DNA of 58,015 bases from Candidatus Harrisonbacteria bacterium (GCA_023244975.1 JAHFLG010000012.1:1-58015); one strand, 5' to 3'; positions 3,965 to 56,509 are shown, counted from the stretch's first letter. Notes: a model not told the origin generated them from the letters alone. Made by a program: numbers and translations.

Positions 3965-4674
3965 GGCGCCCACAGAATATTATTTTGCTTGCGGTTTTCT
4001 GCGCATTATTTCTTATTGGCCAATGGCTGTTCATTCCCAAGACCTATGTGAACTCGGTGATTATTCAGGCGCTGCAGGCGCCGAAGGTTTTGCTCCAATC
4101 ATTGATCAACCGGCATGAGATAGTTACTCAGCTTTCTGATTTGCAACTTGAAAATCAGAGTCTGCGCGCTCAGATCCAAGAGCTTAAGTCGAGCCCCGCG
4201 ATTATCAAGACCGGTAAGGCTATCTATGTGAGCGCGCATGTGTATTCTTCATATCCGCTCAACAACAGCGGTCTCATTCTCATAAGTGCCGGCGCGGATC
4301 AGGGGATTACCAAGGGGGCGATTGTGTTAGCCGCCCCCGGAATTTTTTTAGGTCAGGTTACTGATGTAAGCGGATCTACCAGTCAGGTACGCACGATCTT
4401 TGATCCCGACTGGGAGCTGCCGGTCAAAATTGGAGATCAAAAAATCGATTCGTTGCTTGTCGGTGGTCATGAGCCGCGGCTCACTCTCATTTCAAAAAAG
4501 AAAATGGCGCACGTCGGCCAGGCGGTCATTCTTGCAGCCAAGGAGTATCCATATGGACTTACGGTTGGCACGGTTGGGAATCTTAAAGATGGTGGTGCAG
4601 ATTTGTTTCAGGAGGCGGCACTGGCAACTTCCTACCAATTCGGCAGTTTGAATGATATGTTAGTTGTTCAGTAA
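3961..4674 (+). CDS. mreC: rod shape-determining protein MreC
   Basis: N-terminal TM helix, coiled-coil (LQLENQSLRAQIQELK) and beta-rich C-terminus. ATGA overlap with mreB. Confidence 0.7.
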   Translation: MRRPQNIILLAVFCALFLIGQWLFIPKTYVNSVIIQALQAPKVLLQSLINRHEIVTQLSDLQLENQSLRAQIQELKSSPAIIKTGKAIYVSAHVYSSYPLNNSGLILISAGADQGITKGAIVLAAPGIFLGQVTDVSGSTSQVRTIFDPDWELPVKIGDQKIDSLLVGGHEPRLTLISKKKMAHVGQAVILAAKEYPYGLTVGTVGNLKDGGADLFQEAALATSYQFGSLNDMLVVQ

Positions 4675-7042: not shown

Positions 7043-7813
7043 ATGAGCAAAATACTGATTGCGAATTGGAAGATGAATCCGGAAAAAGAAACAGATGCCA
7101 TTAAGCTTGCCAAAGCCACTGACGGTGAGCATGTGGTCATCTGTCCACCCCTGCCGTTTTTAAGCGAAGTCAGCACTGCAATCAACAAAAGTGCTCTGGG
7201 AGCCCAAGATATCTCAACCGATCCAATAACCGGTCCGTTTACGGGCGAGGTTTCGGCATCTCAGTTGAGATCCATGGGGATTCAGTATGTCATTATTGGA
7301 CACTCTTCTCGTCGTAGCCGTGATGGTGAGACAGATGAGATTGTGGCCAAAAAAATAGCCGCTGCTCTCGATGCCGGATTGATCCCAATTTTGTGTGTAG
7401 GTGAAACTGCAACCGAGCGGAGTCATGGTCATACTCGTGAAGTTCTTGACAGGCAGTTGCGAATGGCATTTTCTCTGATTCCTGCTGATACCGGCGAGAA
7501 AAAATTTAATGTTATTGTAGCCTACGAGCCCGTCTGGGCGATCAGTACTAATCAGGCTCCGGGTGCAGGCGGTCATAGTGAGGGCGCTACGCCCAGTATG
7601 GTTCAGGATATGATAAGCTACATGAAGGGTATTGTCCGTGGTATGCCGATTACTCCCGTATTTATCTACGGTGGTTCCGTTGATGCTGAGAATCTTGGGT
7701 CATTTTTGGAATGTTCTGAAATTCACGGAGCGCTGGTTGGTGCAGTAAGCCTTAAAGCAGGGGAATTTAAAAAAATGATCGTGGTCGCATCGCAATCAAA
7801 CATTAATAATTAA
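7043..7813 (+). CDS. tpiA: triosephosphate isomerase
   Basis: ANWKMN, GHSSRR and AYEPVWAI motifs. Confidence 0.85.
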   Translation: MSKILIANWKMNPEKETDAIKLAKATDGEHVVICPPLPFLSEVSTAINKSALGAQDISTDPITGPFTGEVSASQLRSMGIQYVIIGHSSRRSRDGETDEIVAKKIAAALDAGLIPILCVGETATERSHGHTREVLDRQLRMAFSLIPADTGEKKFNVIVAYEPVWAISTNQAPGAGGHSEGATPSMVQDMISYMKGIVRGMPITPVFIYGGSVDAENLGSFLECSEIHGALVGAVSLKAGEFKKMIVVASQSNINN

Positions 7814-10957: not shown

Positions 10958-11030
10958 GCCACCTTAGCTCAGCTGGTAGAGCAATACTTTCGTAAAGTAG
11001 AGGTCCCGAGTTCGACTCTCGGAGGTGGCT
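10958..11030 (+). tRNA. tRNA-Thr (anticodon CGU)
   Basis: Hand-folded cloverleaf: acceptor GCCACCT/AGGTGGC, D-arm GCTC-AGCTGGTA-GAGC, anticodon loop TTCGTAA, T-arm CCGAG-TTCGACT-CTCGG. Confidence 0.85.
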
Positions 11031-11041
11031 CAAAAATATCT

Positions 11042-11749
11042 ATGAACTCTCAATACGACACATCCAATGTTCATCTGACTGTCTACCCGGGCGTGGGAGG
11101 GGACGATGCCAAGGACTGGGCAGATATGCTGATTCAAATGTATGCCAAGTATGCCGTTAGCCGTGGCTGGAAGGTGGCGCAGATTGATGATCGGTCGCTC
11201 GAAATTAAGGGCGAGACCGTTTATGGAACGCTTAAAAAAGAAAGCGGGGTGCACCGACTCGTGCGCATCTCACCGTATGACGCCAAAAAGTTGCGTCACA
11301 CCTCGTTTGCCCTGGTTGAGGTTGTGCCTATTTTAGCTGAACTGGCGAGAAAAATGGTCATCCCGCCACAAGACCTCGATGTTCAGACTGCGCGCGCCGG
11401 AGGTCCGGGCGGGCAAAATGTGAACAAGCGCGAGACTGCCGTGCGCGTGGTCCATATTCCGACCGGCATTGCCACGACCTGTCGCGAAGAGCGAGGTCAG
11501 CTGCAAAATAAAGAAAAAGCTATCGCGCTTTTAAAATCAAAACTTCTGCACTTGCAGGAAGTGTATCAAAAACAGACGCTCGCCGACCTGCGCGTGCACG
11601 CCAAGCCGGAGTGGGGAAGCCAGATTCGGTCGTACGTCTTGCACCCGTATAAAATGGTTAAAGACCACCGTACCAAGGCCGAAAGCAGTCAGCCGGACAA
11701 GGTCTTAGCGGGTGATCTTGAGAAGTTTATCAATGCCGAAAACGCATAG
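11042..11749 (+). CDS. prfB: peptide chain release factor 2 lacking N-terminal domain 1
   Basis: GGQ motif (GPGGQNVNK), RHTSFA and [13 protein letters not shown], all RF2-like. Only 235 aa. SPY replaces the SPF tripeptide. Confidence 0.8.
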
Positions 11750-17620: not shown

Positions 17621-19009
17621 ATGTTGAAGAACTTTTTGGAGATTCCGTACGATGAGCTCGAGGAGATGAACCTTAAGACTCTCTCTGAGGCTGAGTATAG
17701 AGAGTATTTGAAAAAAGAAAAGAGGATTAAGGCGGTGACCTTGTGCTTCTCGGATCTTGAAGGTCGCTTCCATATGCTTGATTATGATAAGAAGTTTTTG
17801 CTCGGCAGCGCTGACAATTTAACTTTTGACGGTTCGTCTATCCGCGGCTTTTCCCAACAGAGCGAGAGCGACCTGCGCCTCGACATCGATTGGACCAGCT
17901 TCCGGTCGCTACCGTCGGATATTTTTGGCTCGGGCAAGGTGATTATGTTTGCTAATGTGTTAAACCGCGACAAGAGTCCGTACGAGAGTGATTTTCGCGC
18001 ACAATTGCAGATGTATGCGAACAGCCTCAAGAAAAAAGAGGGCTACACCCTCAACGCGGCAACCGAAATCGAAGGATTTTTGGTAGACGGAGTTAATGCT
18101 GAAGCAGAGTATGAAACCAAAGGCTTTAGTTTGATTTCAAGCGGCGGATATTATCATTCGTTACCGATGGACCGGCTGCGTCAGTTTATCGACCGCGCTG
18201 CTGAGGCTCAGCGAGCCATGGGATTTCGAAATGAAAAAGATCACCCGGAAGTCGCGCCATCGCAATTCGAAATGAATTTTTCCTATGCCGATGTGATACG
18301 CGCTGCCGACAACATCCAATTGTATAAATTGGTTGCTCGTCAGGTTGCCAACTCCCTGGGTATGACTGCAACCTTTCTGCCGAAACCGGTCACCGGGATT
18401 AACGGCAGCGGTATGCACACCAATATGTCGATAGCTAAAGCAGGGAAGAACTTATTCCACGATGCCAAGGGCAAAGACGGGCTGAGCAAGATGGGCTGGG
18501 ACTTTACGATGCGCGTGCTCAATCATGCTCCGGAAATTTGTTTGCCGCTTAACTCCAGTGTCAACGCCTATCGTCGCCTCGACCCGCACTTTGAAGCGCC
18601 AAACCAGATAAAAGTCTCGGCTATTGATCGGGGATCAATGATTCGGATTCCGGTTGGCAACGAGCGCAGCGCGCGTATCGAAGTTCGTTCCGTGGCCCCA
18701 GACAGCAACCCGTACTTGGTCCTCTACACCTTGTTCCGTACCGGCCTTGAAGGTAAGCCGCTAAAGAAAGACACCGACAAGCGCGACCGGCTGCGCTTTT
18801 TGCCGGACAACATTAATGACGCGATCAAATTGTTTAAGTCCAGTGATTTTATCACCAAGCTGCTCGGTCAGGTCAATCAAGACAAGGTTGTCAGCTACAA
18901 GCAGGCGGCTGCAGATCGCAGCCCCAAGGCTCTCGGCACTATGGTCAAAGCTTCCGAAGTCATCTACCACCACGAGGTCACCAACCAAGTCCTCTGGAAC
19001 CGGTTTTAG
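17621..19009 (+). CDS. glnA: glutamine synthetase family protein
   Basis: GS catalytic-domain motifs (HPEVAPSQFEMNF, NGSGMHTNMS, AYRRL). Confidence 0.8.
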   Translation: MLKNFLEIPYDELEEMNLKTLSEAEYREYLKKEKRIKAVTLCFSDLEGRFHMLDYDKKFLLGSADNLTFDGSSIRGFSQQSESDLRLDIDWTSFRSLPSDIFGSGKVIMFANVLNRDKSPYESDFRAQLQMYANSLKKKEGYTLNAATEIEGFLVDGVNAEAEYETKGFSLISSGGYYHSLPMDRLRQFIDRAAEAQRAMGFRNEKDHPEVAPSQFEMNFSYADVIRAADNIQLYKLVARQVANSLGMTATFLPKPVTGINGSGMHTNMSIAKAGKNLFHDAKGKDGLSKMGWDFTMRVLNHAPEICLPLNSSVNAYRRLDPHFEAPNQIKVSAIDRGSMIRIPVGNERSARIEVRSVAPDSNPYLVLYTLFRTGLEGKPLKKDTDKRDRLRFLPDNINDAIKLFKSSDFITKLLGQVNQDKVVSYKQAAADRSPKALGTMVKASEVIYHHEVTNQVLWNRF

Positions 19010-26395: not shown

Positions 26396-27331
26396 ATGAA
26401 ACTTAAGCCAATTTCTATAGTACTCATAGTATTGATAGTTTTTGGAGTTATTGGTGTCGTCATATATAAAGTCGAGCTAACGCTACAAACCAGAGTCGAG
26501 GCAGTATTTGCAGAAAAGCCAGCGTTGATCTGTCCGATTGGAACCATGGAGTTGAGCAGCTGCGGTTATTATTCAGTCTACCCCGATTTTTATTGGGATA
26601 AGCGTGCCGAGGAAACAAGTGACCAAAGATATTGTGGAGAGATCAAGGATGACTACCGGCGATCAGCTTGTTATGAGAGTATTGCTCAAGCCAAGCGCGA
26701 TGCCAATATTTGTCAGTATGCGACCGAAGACTTGGGTTGCGAAGAGCAGGTTGCATACAATATATATTGGGATTCTGGTAAAACCACTTTCGCTCCACCA
26801 ACAGTTCTTAATACTGTTTCAGTTGAAAAGGATCTCAGTCCTACTGTCCAAAAGATTATCGTTGCGCTCAGAGATAAGAATTTAGTCAGTCTTGAACCGT
26901 ATGTGGATTCGGAGAAAGGAGTTCTCTTCGGAGATCTGGGCGATTACGGCACAAAATTGATGCAGTCAGATCTAGCAACGGCTTTTACGAATTCCAAAAA
27001 GTATCCACTCCATTTATTTGTTAGTCATGATCCGGAACAAATTACATTTAAGCAATTTTTCGATCGCTATGTATGGTCTGAGTATACTGATACTGCTTCT
27101 GTGAAAGCAGTGTATTACATTGAGATGAAGGGACGCAAGAATATCGATGGGACAGTTTTTAAGGTAAATCCTAATGCATCCGCGCAGTTTATCTTGCCGA
27201 CAAAAAATAATCCGGAACCAATCAATAACACATTCATAAATCTTTATTTTGAGAAAAAGCAGGGCGCGTGGTATCTTATCGGTACGACTCATAGCGATGA
27301 TGATAGTAGGGGTCTAGGTGATGCTGATTAA
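26396..27331 (+). CDS. hypothetical membrane-anchored Cys-rich protein
   Basis: N-terminal TM helix and an extracytoplasmic domain with 8 Cys in the first ~100 residues. No recognisable family. Confidence 0.55.
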   Translation: MKLKPISIVLIVLIVFGVIGVVIYKVELTLQTRVEAVFAEKPALICPIGTMELSSCGYYSVYPDFYWDKRAEETSDQRYCGEIKDDYRRSACYESIAQAKRDANICQYATEDLGCEEQVAYNIYWDSGKTTFAPPTVLNTVSVEKDLSPTVQKIIVALRDKNLVSLEPYVDSEKGVLFGDLGDYGTKLMQSDLATAFTNSKKYPLHLFVSHDPEQITFKQFFDRYVWSEYTDTASVKAVYYIEMKGRKNIDGTVFKVNPNASAQFILPTKNNPEPINNTFINLYFEKKQGAWYLIGTTHSDDDSRGLGDAD

Positions 27332-29021: not shown

Positions 29022-29107
29022 CGCTTGAACCAGTTACGGTTCGGCTTTTTGTGATTCCCGTGAAGCAAAGACTAGAAAAAGTGAGAGAAAAATGCGAGGA
29101 TATATCT

Positions 29108-30226
29108 ATGGCTAAAAGTGAGTACGCAAAAAGCGGGGTGGACTATACCTTGATGGAGCCGTTTAAGCAGGCGATGATTGCTACGGGCAAACGCACGGTG
29201 ACGTTTCCGAATAAGCGCGGTGTGTATATTAATCAGGACGTGATGCACGCCCACGGCGCGGTGTATGAGTATCGCGGCAGTAAAAGTCACAGCTGGTGCC
29301 ACACGCACGAGGACCTAGGCAACAAGAACTGGATTGCGGAGTGGATGTATCAGAATGGCCCGAAGGGTCGGACATATTATGAAGGGATTGGGATTGATAC
29401 GGCCTTGATGGTGGTCAATGATGTTATTGCCCAGGGCGCCCTGCCGGTGGTGTTTACCGATCAGGTAGAAGTAGGCGACAGCGCCTGGTTTGGTGATATC
29501 AAGCGGAGTCAGGCCTTGGCTGAAAGTTTTTACAAGATTTGCGAAGAAGTCGGCATGGCGTTACCCGCAGGCGAGTCAGCGACATTAAAATATTTAATAA
29601 AATCAGCGCCGCCAGTGAAGATTGCTCCGAGTCTGTCCGGATCTGTCACCGCCATCATCGCGCCAAAAGAACGGCTCATCACTGGAAAAGATTTACAGGC
29701 AGGAGATCACATCATCGCCGTCAGCTCATCAGGTATTCACTCCAATGGAGTTTCGCTAGTTATTAAAAAAGCCATGGAGCTGCCGGAAAAGTTTTTAACC
29801 AAGCTGCCAAGCGGCACAACTCTCGGCGAGAGCGCACTTATTCCCACGCGTTCCTATGTGAAATTAATTGAACATTTGCAGGAGGGCGCCATAACCATTC
29901 ACGCGCTCCTTCCGGGGACCGGCGATGGAGTAGGGAAGCTGTCGTTCGACAAGCGGCCATTTTCATATCGTATTCATTCATGGCTCGCGGTTCCCGAACT
30001 GATGCAGTTTTTCCGCAGCCAGGGTCTGTCGCTACTCGACTGTCTCAAGACCTTTAACTGGGGGGCCGGTTACTATATTTTTGCACCAAAAGACCAAGTA
30101 GATCAGATTATAAAAATCGGCACCGCAGCCGGCTACACGCTTGCCGACGTCGGCACCGTTGAAAGCGGCACTCGCCAAACCATCTTCGAACCCGAAAAGA
30201 TTATCTTGCCTCCTCCGGGCCAGTAA
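29108..30226 (+). CDS. purM: divergent AIR synthetase (PurM-like)
   Basis: YAKSGVD N-terminus, GIGIDTALMVVNDVIAQGA, SSSGIHSNGVSL. Start at MAKSEY; the ORF-track TTG start reads through repeat C1. Confidence 0.65.
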   Translation: MAKSEYAKSGVDYTLMEPFKQAMIATGKRTVTFPNKRGVYINQDVMHAHGAVYEYRGSKSHSWCHTHEDLGNKNWIAEWMYQNGPKGRTYYEGIGIDTALMVVNDVIAQGALPVVFTDQVEVGDSAWFGDIKRSQALAESFYKICEEVGMALPAGESATLKYLIKSAPPVKIAPSLSGSVTAIIAPKERLITGKDLQAGDHIIAVSSSGIHSNGVSLVIKKAMELPEKFLTKLPSGTTLGESALIPTRSYVKLIEHLQEGAITIHALLPGTGDGVGKLSFDKRPFSYRIHSWLAVPELMQFFRSQGLSLLDCLKTFNWGAGYYIFAPKDQVDQIIKIGTAAGYTLADVGTVESGTRQTIFEPEKIILPPPGQ

Positions 30227-30320
30227 TCCTTATATCCCTAATTCGAACGAATTAGTCCTTATATTATCACGTACTAGTACGCTGTAACATGAGTTAGGTT
30301 AAGAAATTTTAAAATTAATT

Positions 30321-30386
30321 AAAAAACAAAGGAGCCGCCTGACACAGCTCCAATGTTGGGCGGGCGTCAGACGGCTCGAATTTTTA
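30321..30386. terminator. bidirectional intrinsic terminator
   Basis: Stem GAGCCGCCTGAC/GTCAGACGGCTC (11 of 12 bp) flanked by an A-tract (AAAAAACAAAG) and a T-tract (GAATTTTT). Confidence 0.6.
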
Positions 30387-30464
30387 GTTTGCTACCGTGA
30401 GCGTGTCAGGTACGTTCACAGCGTGTTCACCTCCTTCCTGTCCGCGCGGTGCGGACGGTGTGGG

Positions 30465-31004
30465 TCAGTCGTCGAGGACGACGCCGTTGGGGATGTAGCA
30501 GGCGACAAAAATGTGCATGCTCCAGTCCTTGGGGAGGACGTGGAAGTCGAGTTTCTTGTTGCCCTGCAGGATTGCAGGGAAGCCATCGCGAGGGACCTCA
30601 GCGGCGACGGATCCCTTGGGCGGTTTCCGGAAGACCTGCGTTCCTACGAAGATGACACGCAGGCCCTGCTCCCGAATTCGTTCTCCCAGGAGTGGGCCGC
30701 CCTGTTGGCGAGGAATCTCGATGAAGTGGTCGTACATCCACTCTCCTTCCGCCCATCCCGGAAAGGTGACGCCGAGCTCACTTGCATCGCGCAAGCGCTC
30801 TTCCAACTCGTCGGCCGAGATGCTCTCCTCCTGGGCACGAACGACACGTGCCACTCGGATCTCGCCACCGCCGATTGGTGAATTGTGGCCGAGGCTGCTC
30901 ATCCAGGGCCGCCCTTCCTTCGCGTGCTTCAGCGTAGTCCGCCGCATTCTCGGAACCAGAATGCGGATCTCAGGGTCAACGCCGAAAAGTCCGGTTGAAC
31001 TCAT
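30465..31004 (-). CDS. orphan 179-aa protein of unknown function, compositionally foreign
   Basis: About 60 %GC by eye against high-40s in the flanks. AAGGAG SD 8 nt upstream of the ATG at 31004. Own terminator. No motif I recognise, and no TM helix or signal peptide. Confidence 0.7.
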   Translation of the reverse strand: MSSTGLFGVDPEIRILVPRMRRTTLKHAKEGRPWMSSLGHNSPIGGGEIRVARVVRAQEESISADELEERLRDASELGVTFPGWAEGEWMYDHFIEIPRQQGGPLLGERIREQGLRVIFVGTQVFRKPPKGSVAAEVPRDGFPAILQGNKKLDFHVLPKDWSMHIFVACYIPNGVVLDD

Positions 31005-31110
31005 TTCTATCGCTCCTTTCGTGAGCGTTGCCACCAAACTTACTGGGTCTGGGGCGAGTACATACATAAGCACAAATAGGCTCATTAGTCAATTATGAGA
31101 GGAGTTTATA

Positions 31111-31139
31111 TTGACTTATGCCTTTTTATCTGCTATATT
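31111..31139 (+). promoter_or_regulatory. sigma70-like promoter for guaB
   Basis: TTGACT-17 nt-TATATT, about 50 nt upstream of the guaB ATG. Confidence 0.5.
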
Positions 31140-31189
31140 GGATTTCTTACTCAAAGGTAAGCTTAAGGTTTAGTCAAAAAAAAGCTCAT

Positions 31190-33938
<2,749 letters not shown>

Positions 33939-55927: not shown

Positions 55928-55955
55928 TTGACATTGTATATACATTGTGTATACT
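55928..55955 (+). promoter_or_regulatory. promoter/operator of the dinJ-yafQ operon (leaderless)
   Basis: TTGACA-16 nt-TATACT, with the -10 ending 6 nt before the ATG. The spacer holds the 10-bp palindrome TGTATATACA and the repeats ACATTGTATATAC/ACATTGTGTATAC. Confidence 0.55.
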
Positions 55956-55961
55956 GATTGC

Positions 55962-56219
55962 ATGAATACTTTAAATGTCCGGATAGATAAAAAAATTAAG
56001 AAAAAGGCGACCGAGACTCTTGAGGCTATCGGTCTTGATATGTCTTCAGCTGTTAAGCTTTTTCTTAATCAGGTTATTATCGAACAAGGACTGCCATTTA
56101 CTCCCAGGCGCACCCCGAAAGAGATTCGAGCAGAATGGGACAAGGAAATTGAAGAGGCTCGGAAAGACGGTAAGACATATAAAACAGCATCTGCCATGTT
56201 GCGCGATATTATGCGTTAA
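55962..56219 (+). CDS. dinJ: RelB/DinJ-family antitoxin
   Basis: MNTLNVRIDKKIKKKATETLEAIGLDMSSAVKLFLNQV is the classic DinJ RHH N-terminus. Confidence 0.8.
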   Translation: MNTLNVRIDKKIKKKATETLEAIGLDMSSAVKLFLNQVIIEQGLPFTPRRTPKEIRAEWDKEIEEARKDGKTYKTASAMLRDIMR

Positions 56220-56227
56220 GCACCACG

Positions 56228-56509
56228 ATGTACCGCTTGCGTCACACAAAATTATTTCAGAAATCATTCAAGCGACTAGCAAGGTCTGGCGATAAAAAGA
56301 TATTGCAGGAAGTCGATATAGCGATAACCAACTTAATCCAAGACGAGTCTCTTTCAGGTAAGTACCATGATCATGCTCTTATCGGTGAGTATCTCGGATA
56401 TAGAGAGTGCCATATCCGCCCAGATGTTCTTTTGATATATAGTATTCAGAAGAATGAAATGGTACTCGAGATTTTCAATATCGGTTCGCATTCTCAATTA
56501 TTCGATTAA
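56228..56509 (+). CDS. yafQ: YafQ/RelE-family mRNA interferase toxin
   Basis: KRLARSG..., HDHALIGEYLGYRECHIRPDVLLIY, GSHSQLF, all YafQ-like. Confidence 0.8.
   Translation: MYRLRHTKLFQKSFKRLARSGDKKILQEVDIAITNLIQDESLSGKYHDHALIGEYLGYRECHIRPDVLLIYSIQKNEMVLEIFNIGSHSQLFD

Follow-up and report, generated by a model that had tools for sequence, protein, structure and literature searches.

The locus between purM and guaB

The window, by which we mean the whole stretch of DNA analysed here (58,015 nucleotides), is a 58-kb chromosomal contig of a member of the Patescibacteria (CPR, Paceibacteria-like). It carries core genes (frr, mreBC, PBP2, tpiA, ftsEX and glnA), a pyrimidine cluster and a purine cluster composed of purL-F-N-D-E-C-M, guaB, purA, guaA, purB and purH; its PurM-like protein is 64-75% identical to the counterparts in 80 Patescibacteria species genomes. 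On the plus strand, between positions 17621 and 36908, glnA, purL, purF, purN, purD, an unknown gene, purE, purC and purM are followed by guaB, purA, guaA and purB. Between the purM stop at 30226 and the guaB start codon (ATG, 31190) an ORF lies on the minus strand, and it is the sole minus-strand gene among the pur/gua genes over these 19.3 kb.

This gene occupies positions 30465 to 31004 (minus strand; stop codon TGA at 30465-30467, ATG at 31002-31004) and encodes a protein of 179 aa (P0001), which will be called the orphan protein. The mechanical ORF extends to 31085; the start was set at the ATG at 31004 by the Shine-Dalgarno (SD) sequence and by the N-termini of the homologs. On the opposite (plus) strand, shadow ORFs of 152 and 195 aa are present, which are an expected by-product of high GC at third codon positions (GC3). 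Two tRNAs and a RelB/YafQ pair are also found on the contig, 19 kb and 25 kb from the orphan gene, respectively.

A chimeric assembly is very unlikely to lie behind the purM-orphan-guaB arrangement, because two further assemblies show it as well: an independent 1852-bp ENA contig is 100% identical over both junctions (29424-31275), and a third assembly contains the orphan gene, with a one-residue variant (I96T), adjoining guaB-purA-guaA.

Composition and translation signals

The GC content of the orphan gene is 0.607 and its GC3 is 0.722, each the top value among the 53 genes of the contig, whose means are 0.494 (sd 0.037) for GC and 0.536 (sd 0.065) for GC3; the values at the three codon positions are 0.66, 0.44 and 0.72. 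No other region of the contig reaches a GC content of at least 0.58 over 540 nt (z 3.2), and by tetranucleotide usage, too, this region deviates more than any other, ranking first of 639 (z 5.2). Windows of 300 nt within purE also rise up to 0.607, the whole purE gene being at 0.54.

An AAGGAG Shine-Dalgarno sequence (31013-31018, minus strand) is located 8 nt before the ATG, whereas any SD-like match is found in only about 8 of 52 genes of the contig, several of these matches being mis-spaced. These observations support the view that the orphan gene, which is also an orphan by homology, differs from its neighbours in composition and in translation signals, and that, monocistronic in appearance, it stands as a self-contained unit supplied with both an SD and a terminator of its own.

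A family of six members

A word-seeded search of 5.8 billion clusters recovered the orphan protein alone. When 1.84 billion representatives were scanned exhaustively with HMMER, five true relatives emerged at 30-49% identity (125-203 aa, E-values from 3.6e-36 to 6.8e-04); overall, the five homologs, at 25-49% identity, share the length of the orphan protein. The family thus has six known members among about 15 billion proteins. A 1592-aa match in the same scan (P0007) is a surface protein with GYTFxGW repeats and was discarded as a motif coincidence. The alignment of the family contains nine invariant columns, including an EESI motif that follows a beta-strand, and a conserved C-terminal segment, W-x-M-H...V-A...P-x-G-V; for seeding a search of loci it proved too divergent. 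The reading frame is intact in five lineages, with a GC content by codon position of about 0.65, 0.44 and 0.8; in all lineages the sense frame is provided with an SD and a start codon, and in tblastx it outscores the frames of the antisense strand. We are thus dealing with a real protein gene, and one that looks expressed.

All the relatives are on short metagenomic contigs, and both flanks are visible only in L003. This contig and L004 come from two Logan runs and have identical DNA, which makes the counting of synonymous and non-synonymous changes between them uninformative. They show the same purM-orf-guaB order and orientation as the window, with PurM 84.6% identical (376 aa), the N-terminus of GuaB 81% identical and the ORF 31% identical. 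In L005 (JGI) the homolog is 30% identical and is beside a guaB whose product has an N-terminus 66% identical to that of the window; the closest homolog (47-49%), in L002 from Hainich groundwater (ERZ1292628), is beside the same conserved guaB promoter. The remaining two copies, those of L086 and L087, are in unrelated contexts, the one in L087, which is frameshifted, being between an endonuclease-III-like gene and tgt. Four of the six members therefore abut the guaB promoter, and the link with guaB is not universal.

No member of the family turned up in 185,579 species genomes when exact-peptide seeds were used, nor in 80 purM loci of GTDB Patescibacteria species genomes searched in six frames with an HMM. 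A scan of JGI metagenomes for the conserved 5' region of guaB, used as a DNA pattern, gave 0 matches. Adjacency of purM and guaB is itself found in only 3 of the 80 related genomes, most of which have purM followed by purC. Since none of the 80 purM loci holds a member, the family, which is very small and previously undescribed, appears from the sequences at hand to occur only in one narrow clade of Paceibacteria-like Patescibacteria from groundwater.

Promoters, terminator and 3' region

The promoter of guaB (TTGACT-17-TATATT, with a TG before the -10 box; 31111-31139, plus strand) is divergent from the orphan gene and is conserved in L002, L003 and L005. The best candidate promoter of the orphan gene, read from the sequence, is a weak TTGACT-17-TTATGT (31064-31092, minus strand) placed back-to-back with that of guaB; it was not called in the scan that called the guaB promoter. 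The counterpart of this element in L002, L003 and L005, TTGCCT-17-TGnAAT, overlaps the spacer of the guaB promoter, its -35 box being within that spacer. We infer from these positions that the orphan promoter may be back-to-back or coupled with that of guaB.

The SD context CUCGAAAGGAG of the orphan gene is among the conserved non-coding parts of the locus, as are the promoter and 5' UTR of guaB. A small 5'-UTR hairpin, CGCUC-A-C(GAAA)G-GAGCG (31011-31027, minus strand), whose stem would hold the 3' half of the SD, is predicted in the window, in L003 (CCCUC/GAGGG, with a compensatory swap of G-C to C-G) and in L005 (with a G-U pair). As an SD-sequestering structure it was set aside and kept as a lead only: it is not predicted in L002, L086 or L087, and its energies are not significant compared with shuffled sequences.

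Downstream of the stop codon a conserved order of elements is observed: first a hairpin with a stem of six G+C-rich base pairs, next GGAAGGAGGUG, which is another strong element of SD type, then a mid hairpin and finally a long terminator. In the window, the first hairpin (GUCCGC-loop-GCGGAC; 30440-30456, minus strand) begins 9 nt past the stop and is also present in L003 and L005; the SD-like element, here GGAAGGAGGUGA (30427-30438, minus strand), is conserved in L003, L005 and L002. In the window, L003 and L005 only an ORF of 11-24 codons follows this second SD. The ORF of the window has a GTG start and 11 codons (MNVPDTLTVAN; 30384-30419, minus strand); those of L003 and L005 share about 12 N-terminal residues, after which their frames differ, and show no similarity to the window peptide, so that the mini-ORF is probably not a conserved coding gene.

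The terminator is a long-stem intrinsic one (30333-30377, both strands), a hairpin of 14 bp or more bordered by A/T runs at 30323-30332 and 30378-30386 that give a U-run on each strand; it serves purM on the plus strand and the orphan gene on the minus strand. An equivalent hairpin is found in L003 and L005, where the sequence of the stem differs and its shape does not. The AT-rich stretch that separates the terminator from the stop codon of purM (30227-30320), with a palindrome CTAATTCGAACGAATTAG at 30238-30255, is absent from L003; a perfect 34-nt palindrome related to CTAATTCGAACGAATTAG was seen in L062.

The features described so far agree with the preliminary description of this locus, made from the sequence. 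The lone minus-strand position among the pur/gua genes, the shadow ORFs, the GC richness relative to the purM and guaB flanks (the k-mer and codon-position comparisons put the ORF at the top of the contig), the AAGGAG sequence among native genes mostly without one, the bidirectional terminator and the near-consensus guaB promoter at the right edge had all been pointed out there, and all of them were confirmed.

The 3' region raises the question of whether the functional element of the locus could be an RNA (3'-UTR-derived or antisense) or a product of the opposite strand, the ORF being incidental. The segment containing the first hairpin, an exposed AAGGAGGU, the mid hairpin and the terminator surpasses the ORF in conservation and has a strong predicted structure (folding z-scores of -4.9, in the window, and -3.5), and the antisense frame a0 has only 0-2 stops in all members. 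However, open antisense frames are expected from the GC3 richness, and the intact sense frame, its SD and start codon throughout, its higher tblastx score and the confident structural models of its product speak for the protein; moreover, a search of positions 30100-31300 with Rfam covariance models gave only a chance-level match, which scored 19.7 bits (E 0.6) where the threshold is 70. Taken together, this makes an RNA or opposite-strand function a highly improbable explanation.

Predicted structure of the protein

Confident models were obtained in two independent AlphaFold2 runs, each targeting another member of the family (pLDDT 82 and pTM 0.82; pLDDT 80 and pTM 0.76). In both, the chain passes from a beta element through a short alpha, two further beta elements and three helices to four strands. 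Foldseek searches against the PDB (performed twice) and BFVD gave no match below E = 0.1, and a profile search of PDB sequences none at E <= 10; this predicted alpha/beta fold is thus a candidate new fold. The protein looks soluble (no transmembrane helix or signal peptide noted, gravy -0.3), with a pI near neutral (5.3-7.9 in four of five members). It has no match in Pfam, NCBIfam, PADLOC or PHROGs, the profiles of the last two returning zero families at E <= 1, in line with the original remark that the 179-aa product bears no assignable motif.

A C-type lectin fold, and with it a diversity-generating retroelement (DGR), was considered and rejected. The first model gave weak CTLD matches (E >= 0.17, TM 0.3-0.45), which fell with the second model to a few weaker, mostly shorter ones (E >= 1.3, TMq <= 0.21); neither a template repeat in the window nor a reverse transcriptase among its annotated ORFs was found.

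Descent at the guaB slot

The preliminary description had interpreted the gene as a recently acquired single-gene cassette, from an SD-using donor of higher GC, that split the pur/gua operon. In favour of this reading are the most extreme GC and tetranucleotide signature of the contig, a non-native SD and the gene's own terminator, and Patescibacteria of higher GC (0.59-0.60) whose GuaB is 74-75% identical could in principle have been donors. The recent import is largely refuted because relatives share the junction while the ORF is far more diverged than its flanks: in L003/L004 the same gene is at the same junction, PurM and GuaB being 85% and 81% identical and the ORF only 31%. Relatives carrying the gene at this junction with native composition had been named in advance as evidence against the import; the shared junction was found, and the native composition was not, every copy being GC/GC3-rich and SD-led. 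A confident hit to a well-characterised housekeeping family, named for the same purpose, was absent from Pfam, NCBIfam and the PDB. Furthermore, neither a homolog outside the six-member family nor a donor was found among about 15 billion proteins, in phage, plasmid and viral collections or, with exact-peptide seeds, in the 185,579 genomes; as for a phage or plasmid origin in particular, tblastn against phages and plasmids and four viral-contig scans were all empty. The splitting of an operon finds no support either, the guaB promoter being common to the relatives and purM-guaB adjacency being rare. With mobility genes and flanking repeats also missing, as detailed below, a recent single-gene import is very unlikely.

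The contrast in rate between the gene and its surroundings is marked. At the nucleotide level the window and L003 are about 75% identical across the flanking purM and guaB; the figure is about 45% for the body of the ORF and recovers to 71-80% in its final 50 nt and the sequence immediately beyond. Between L003 and L005, whose proteins are 41% identical, 40-nt windows beside the ORF are 92-100% identical and those inside it 32-67%. The non-coding ends are thus better conserved than the ORF. As the ORFs are 30-47% identical at the same site, they have been diverging in place at least as long as the lineages themselves. A simple rooted tree, (win,(L002,(L003,L005))), accommodates the pairwise identities of the proteins without transfer; differences in rate suffice. 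A swapping of cassettes had been considered from the higher identity of the window with L002 (47%) than of L002 with L003 (34%), which seemed at odds with the similarity of the flanks, and was discarded, the quartet win,L002|L003,L005 being the unrooted form of the same tree.

The foreign look of the gene is part of this inheritance, because every copy is GC/GC3-rich and SD-led: all six members have a GC content of 0.59-0.65 and a GC3 of 0.70-0.86, with flanks at 0.45-0.51, and all six are preceded by an SD (AAGGAG, GGAGGG or AAAGGAG). Across the family, high GC/GC3 and the SD are thus stable inherited traits rather than scars of transfer. A fast-evolving resident gene is expected to drift toward the composition of its host, and the persistent GC3 excess is unexplained by a model of long residence; selection at the codon or mRNA level, or GC-biased conversion linked to recombination, are candidate causes.

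The second of these causes is at the centre of another explanation, in which the gene is a selfish or frequently exchanged cassette and recombination in the flanks (homing-like or at a hot spot), together with GC-biased conversion, keeps GC3 high and homogenises the flanks. The sharp step between the L003 and L005 flanks and their ORFs is what such exchange would leave, and the GC3 excess in every lineage, the members in other contexts (L086, L087), the different antisense ORFs that fill the slot upstream of guaB in different relatives, and the contig of the closest guaB relative (89%), which ends 154 nt upstream of guaB, point the same way. Against it, no nuclease, integrase or recombinase motif was found in the protein or its neighbourhood, there are no target-site repeats, the identities fit vertical descent, and the conserved flanks consist of promoter, SD and terminator, which are constrained anyway. 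We consider frequent exchange unlikely.

Comparison with mobile and modular gene classes

Around the orphan gene no direct or inverted repeats of note were found, nor a second copy of any part of the ORF region within the window, nor an integrase, transposase, reverse transcriptase or phage gene among the annotated ORFs of the 58 kb. The gene resembles acquired genomic islets in its deviant GC, GC3 and tetranucleotides (z 3.2 for GC and 5.2 for tetranucleotides), in having its own expression signals and in its opposite orientation. It differs from them in being syntenic between flanks diverged by 15-20% (protein), in its composition, which is not ameliorated, and in its presence at the same junction in L003/L004 and beside the same guaB promoter in L005 and L002; mobility hallmarks, a tRNA target, repeats and an identifiable donor are absent as well, over the 58-kb contig and in the protein, phage, plasmid and viral searches.

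As regards other classes, a type II toxin-antitoxin system is not indicated, the gene being single and without a match to any TA family. An integron cassette is not indicated either: no integrase is present on the contig and the downstream hairpin is a terminator with a T-run, the attC site having been judged by eye. The orphan gene also comes with an SD and, probably, a promoter of its own. Nuclease motifs (GIY-YIG, HNH, LAGLIDADG and PD-(D/E)xK) gave no match with Pfam and with Foldseek against PDB/BFVD, searches that may miss a divergent PD-(D/E)xK. In residues 64-126 the order of elements (helix, short strand, helix, helix, beta-hairpin) is compatible with a winged helix, for which there is no Pfam or Foldseek match.

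This last feature invites a comparison with the divergent small regulators that are found beside their target operon. The orphan gene is alike in being back-to-back with the guaB promoter in four lineages and in the winged-helix order of these residues; it is unlike them in that no DNA-binding family was detected for it by sequence or Foldseek, its pI is near neutral and it evolves much faster than is usual for a dedicated regulator.

Clues to a nucleotide-linked role

In L002 the second SD is followed by a real gene, of which the first 21 residues, up to the end of the contig, match PF12694, the cpYpsA (circularly permuted YpsA) family of SLOG proteins (29.1 bits against a curated cut-off of 26.2, on one 818-bp contig). 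SLOG proteins bind or process nucleotides (PMC6459960). The context of the guaB promoter and this cpYpsA/SLOG partner weakly suggest that the orphan protein could have a nucleotide-linked role. A two-gene cpYpsA module is not found in the window, where the adjacent co-oriented PF12694 gene is missing and no GGQTGVD/cpYpsA motif is present; among the other fetched loci the motif is seen in L002 only. With the partners of cpYpsA/SLOG genes in nucleotide-centred systems (Burroughs et al. 2015, as cited in PMC6459960), the locus shares a cpYpsA gene after a strong SD in L002, the SD kept in the window, L003 and L005, and the purine-synthesis neighbourhood; it differs in that the window has no cpYpsA, that the orphan protein matches none of the SLOG-associated domains described, and that the association was seen once.

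The same partner opens a further possibility, that of a conflict gene (immunity, antitoxin, anti-phage or inter-bacterial) under diversifying selection, once a module with cpYpsA/SLOG, the partner having been lost in the window lineage and its SD left behind. The very fast evolution of the protein and the tiny, patchy distribution of the family would agree with this, as would the cpYpsA gene after the conserved second SD in L002 and the same SD kept in the window, L003 and L005 with no gene behind it; in addition, several SLOG proteins act in nucleotide-centred conflict systems, according to a study citing Burroughs 2015 (PMC6459960). A vestigial SD, however, is not expected to stay conserved, the cpYpsA motif is a single observation among the window and the fetched loci, no match was found in PADLOC or PHROGs, and the window carries neither a toxin nor an effector. 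A conflict gene is for these reasons rather improbable.

The guaB slot is also occupied in relatives that do not have the family and whose GuaB is 73-75% identical: by a gene for a 90-aa membrane protein in L089, for a 141-aa signal-peptide protein in L090 and L091, by a 41-aa ORF in L084 and by nothing in L092. Each antisense occupant has a strong SD. Because unrelated SD-led antisense ORFs occupy it elsewhere, the slot, bounded by the pur terminator and the promoter of guaB, seems to be generally permissive for lineage-specific genes of this kind, and the position of the orphan gene may reflect a permissive slot and not a functional tie. Our best guess at the function, made with low confidence and from context, is that this small soluble protein binds a ligand or nucleotide, or acts in regulation, and might be tied to guanine-nucleotide synthesis.

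Conclusions

All this information is probably best explained by a real gene of a tiny family that is an old resident upstream of guaB, mostly vertically inherited and fast-evolving, with a GC/GC3 excess and an SD held by the family and a nucleotide role suggested by context; we hold this account with some, not high, confidence. According to it, the orphan gene would be transcribed divergently from guaB, apparently from a back-to-back promoter, and translated from its strong SD, the transcript stopping at the bidirectional terminator common to purM. The product would be soluble, about 175 aa long, and built of a beta region followed by three helices and another, four-stranded beta region. Descent at the guaB slot would have been mostly vertical, with the protein changing far faster than PurM and GuaB, and a force other than recent transfer would hold the high GC/GC3 and the SD. 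Of these steps, the reality of the gene, its family, the synteny, the rate and the composition are shown by the data, while the function and the coupling of the promoters are inferred.

Orphan genes are common in Patescibacteria genomes. Compared with the genes of the FESNov survey, which reports an excess of transmembrane and signal-peptide proteins among the novel families of Patescibacteria (PMC10849945), the one described here is alike in being lineage-restricted, unannotated and short, with a context conserved within the clade; it is unlike them in that its product looks soluble, that it is GC-rich relative to the host in every lineage and that it has 6 distinct members in about 15 billion proteins.

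Nothing yet shows an unusual mechanism at this locus; three features are worthy of follow-up, namely the compositional decoupling, the non-coding ends that outconserve the ORF and the confident fold without a known relative. A more far-reaching possibility, which we regard as unlikely, is a small clade-specific module composed of a protein of new fold, a conserved, structured 3' RNA with an exposed SD-like element and a promoter interlocked with that of guaB, which would sense or modulate the supply of guanine nucleotides, or else would be a diversifying, hyper-recombining locus in the streamlined genome of an episymbiont, with biased gene conversion holding up its GC3. If true, this would mean a new protein family, a new fold and an unusual, lasting decoupling of composition from the genome without ongoing transfer.

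On the more conservative account of an old resident gene, the locus indicates that a strong foreign-DNA signature (GC, k-mers and SD) can be a stable inherited property of a gene, which calls for caution in the calling of islands in MAGs. The lasting high GC3 of a fast-evolving gene could moreover inform the debate on selection and biased gene conversion in bacteria. The family, undescribed, extremely rare and with a confidently predicted fold, is a new-fold candidate from an unculturable lineage, and its position at the guaB promoter, together with the one-off SLOG link, offers a testable handle on what may be a control of nucleotide pools in purine-making Patescibacteria.

The slot upstream of guaB and the start of guaB

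In relatives whose GuaB is 74-75% identical, the slot directly upstream of guaB is occupied by unrelated antisense ORFs, each preceded by a strong SD. These are a 90-aa membrane ORF in L089 (9034-9306), a 141-aa secreted ORF in L090 (3474-3899) and a 41-aa ORF in L084 (about 7310-7440), three genomes that lack the orphan family. In L090, those pur/gua genes next to the ORF that were checked have no such SD; in L089 a further SD-led antisense ORF, of 81 aa, lies between purQ and purE.

In the public record guaB encodes 513 aa from position 31118. The position of the promoter (31111-31139) and the existence of homologs of 489 aa point to the ATG at 31190 as the true start. This ATG lies inside an inverted repeat of the 5' UTR, TTAGTCA...TGACTAA (31169-31199), with an A8 run between its halves. 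The repeat is shared by the window, L003 and L005, the last two being other lineages with an orphan homolog next to the guaB promoter, and may form a hairpin that controls translation.

The 3' region of the orphan gene and purM

Within the orphan gene's 3' region, a second, strong SD-like element, GGAAGGAGGUG (30427-30438, minus strand), directly follows the G+C hairpin. It is kept in four lineages, the window, L002, L003 and L005; only in L002 is it followed by a real gene, the SLOG-family cpYpsA. In L087, where the orphan family occurs in another context, the family member P0006 (691-1223) is split by a frameshift into ORFs of 125 and 52 aa; the contig has a coverage of 1, and either the gene has decayed into a pseudogene or the sequence contains an error.

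PurM itself (29105-30226, plus strand) is divergent in this clade, scoring only 34-37 bits against Pfam AIRS and AIRS_C, and the window has the gene order purC-purM, as against purM-purC in most of the Patescibacteria genomes examined. The stop codon of purM is separated from the terminator by an AT-rich insert, some 95 nt long (30227-30320) and missing in L003, which contains the palindrome CTAATTCGAACGAATTAG, found once in the window, and also CGTACTAGTACG. The distant Patescibacteria genome L062 has a nearly identical palindrome of 34 nt, which is perfect (TTATATCCCTAATTCG-c-ACGAATTAGGGATATAA, 4531-4564), directly 3' of a stop codon, and the two may represent a common intergenic palindromic element.

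Other genes of the contig

A RelB/YafQ type II toxin-antitoxin pair of low GC (0.38-0.41) is encoded at 55947-56509 (plus strand). Directly past tRNA-Thr (10958-11031) begins the gene of a 235-aa release-factor-like protein (11042-11749, plus strand), composed of the second half of PCRF and RF-1 without the N-terminal domain, which may be PrfH-like or a truncated or frameshifted prfB. Within the pur cluster, purD and purE flank a gene for a 311-aa protein (26396-27331, plus strand) with a hydrophobic N-terminal segment and no match in Pfam; no long gene has a lower GC than its 0.41. This second orphan has a compositional bias opposite to that of the gene at 30465-31004.
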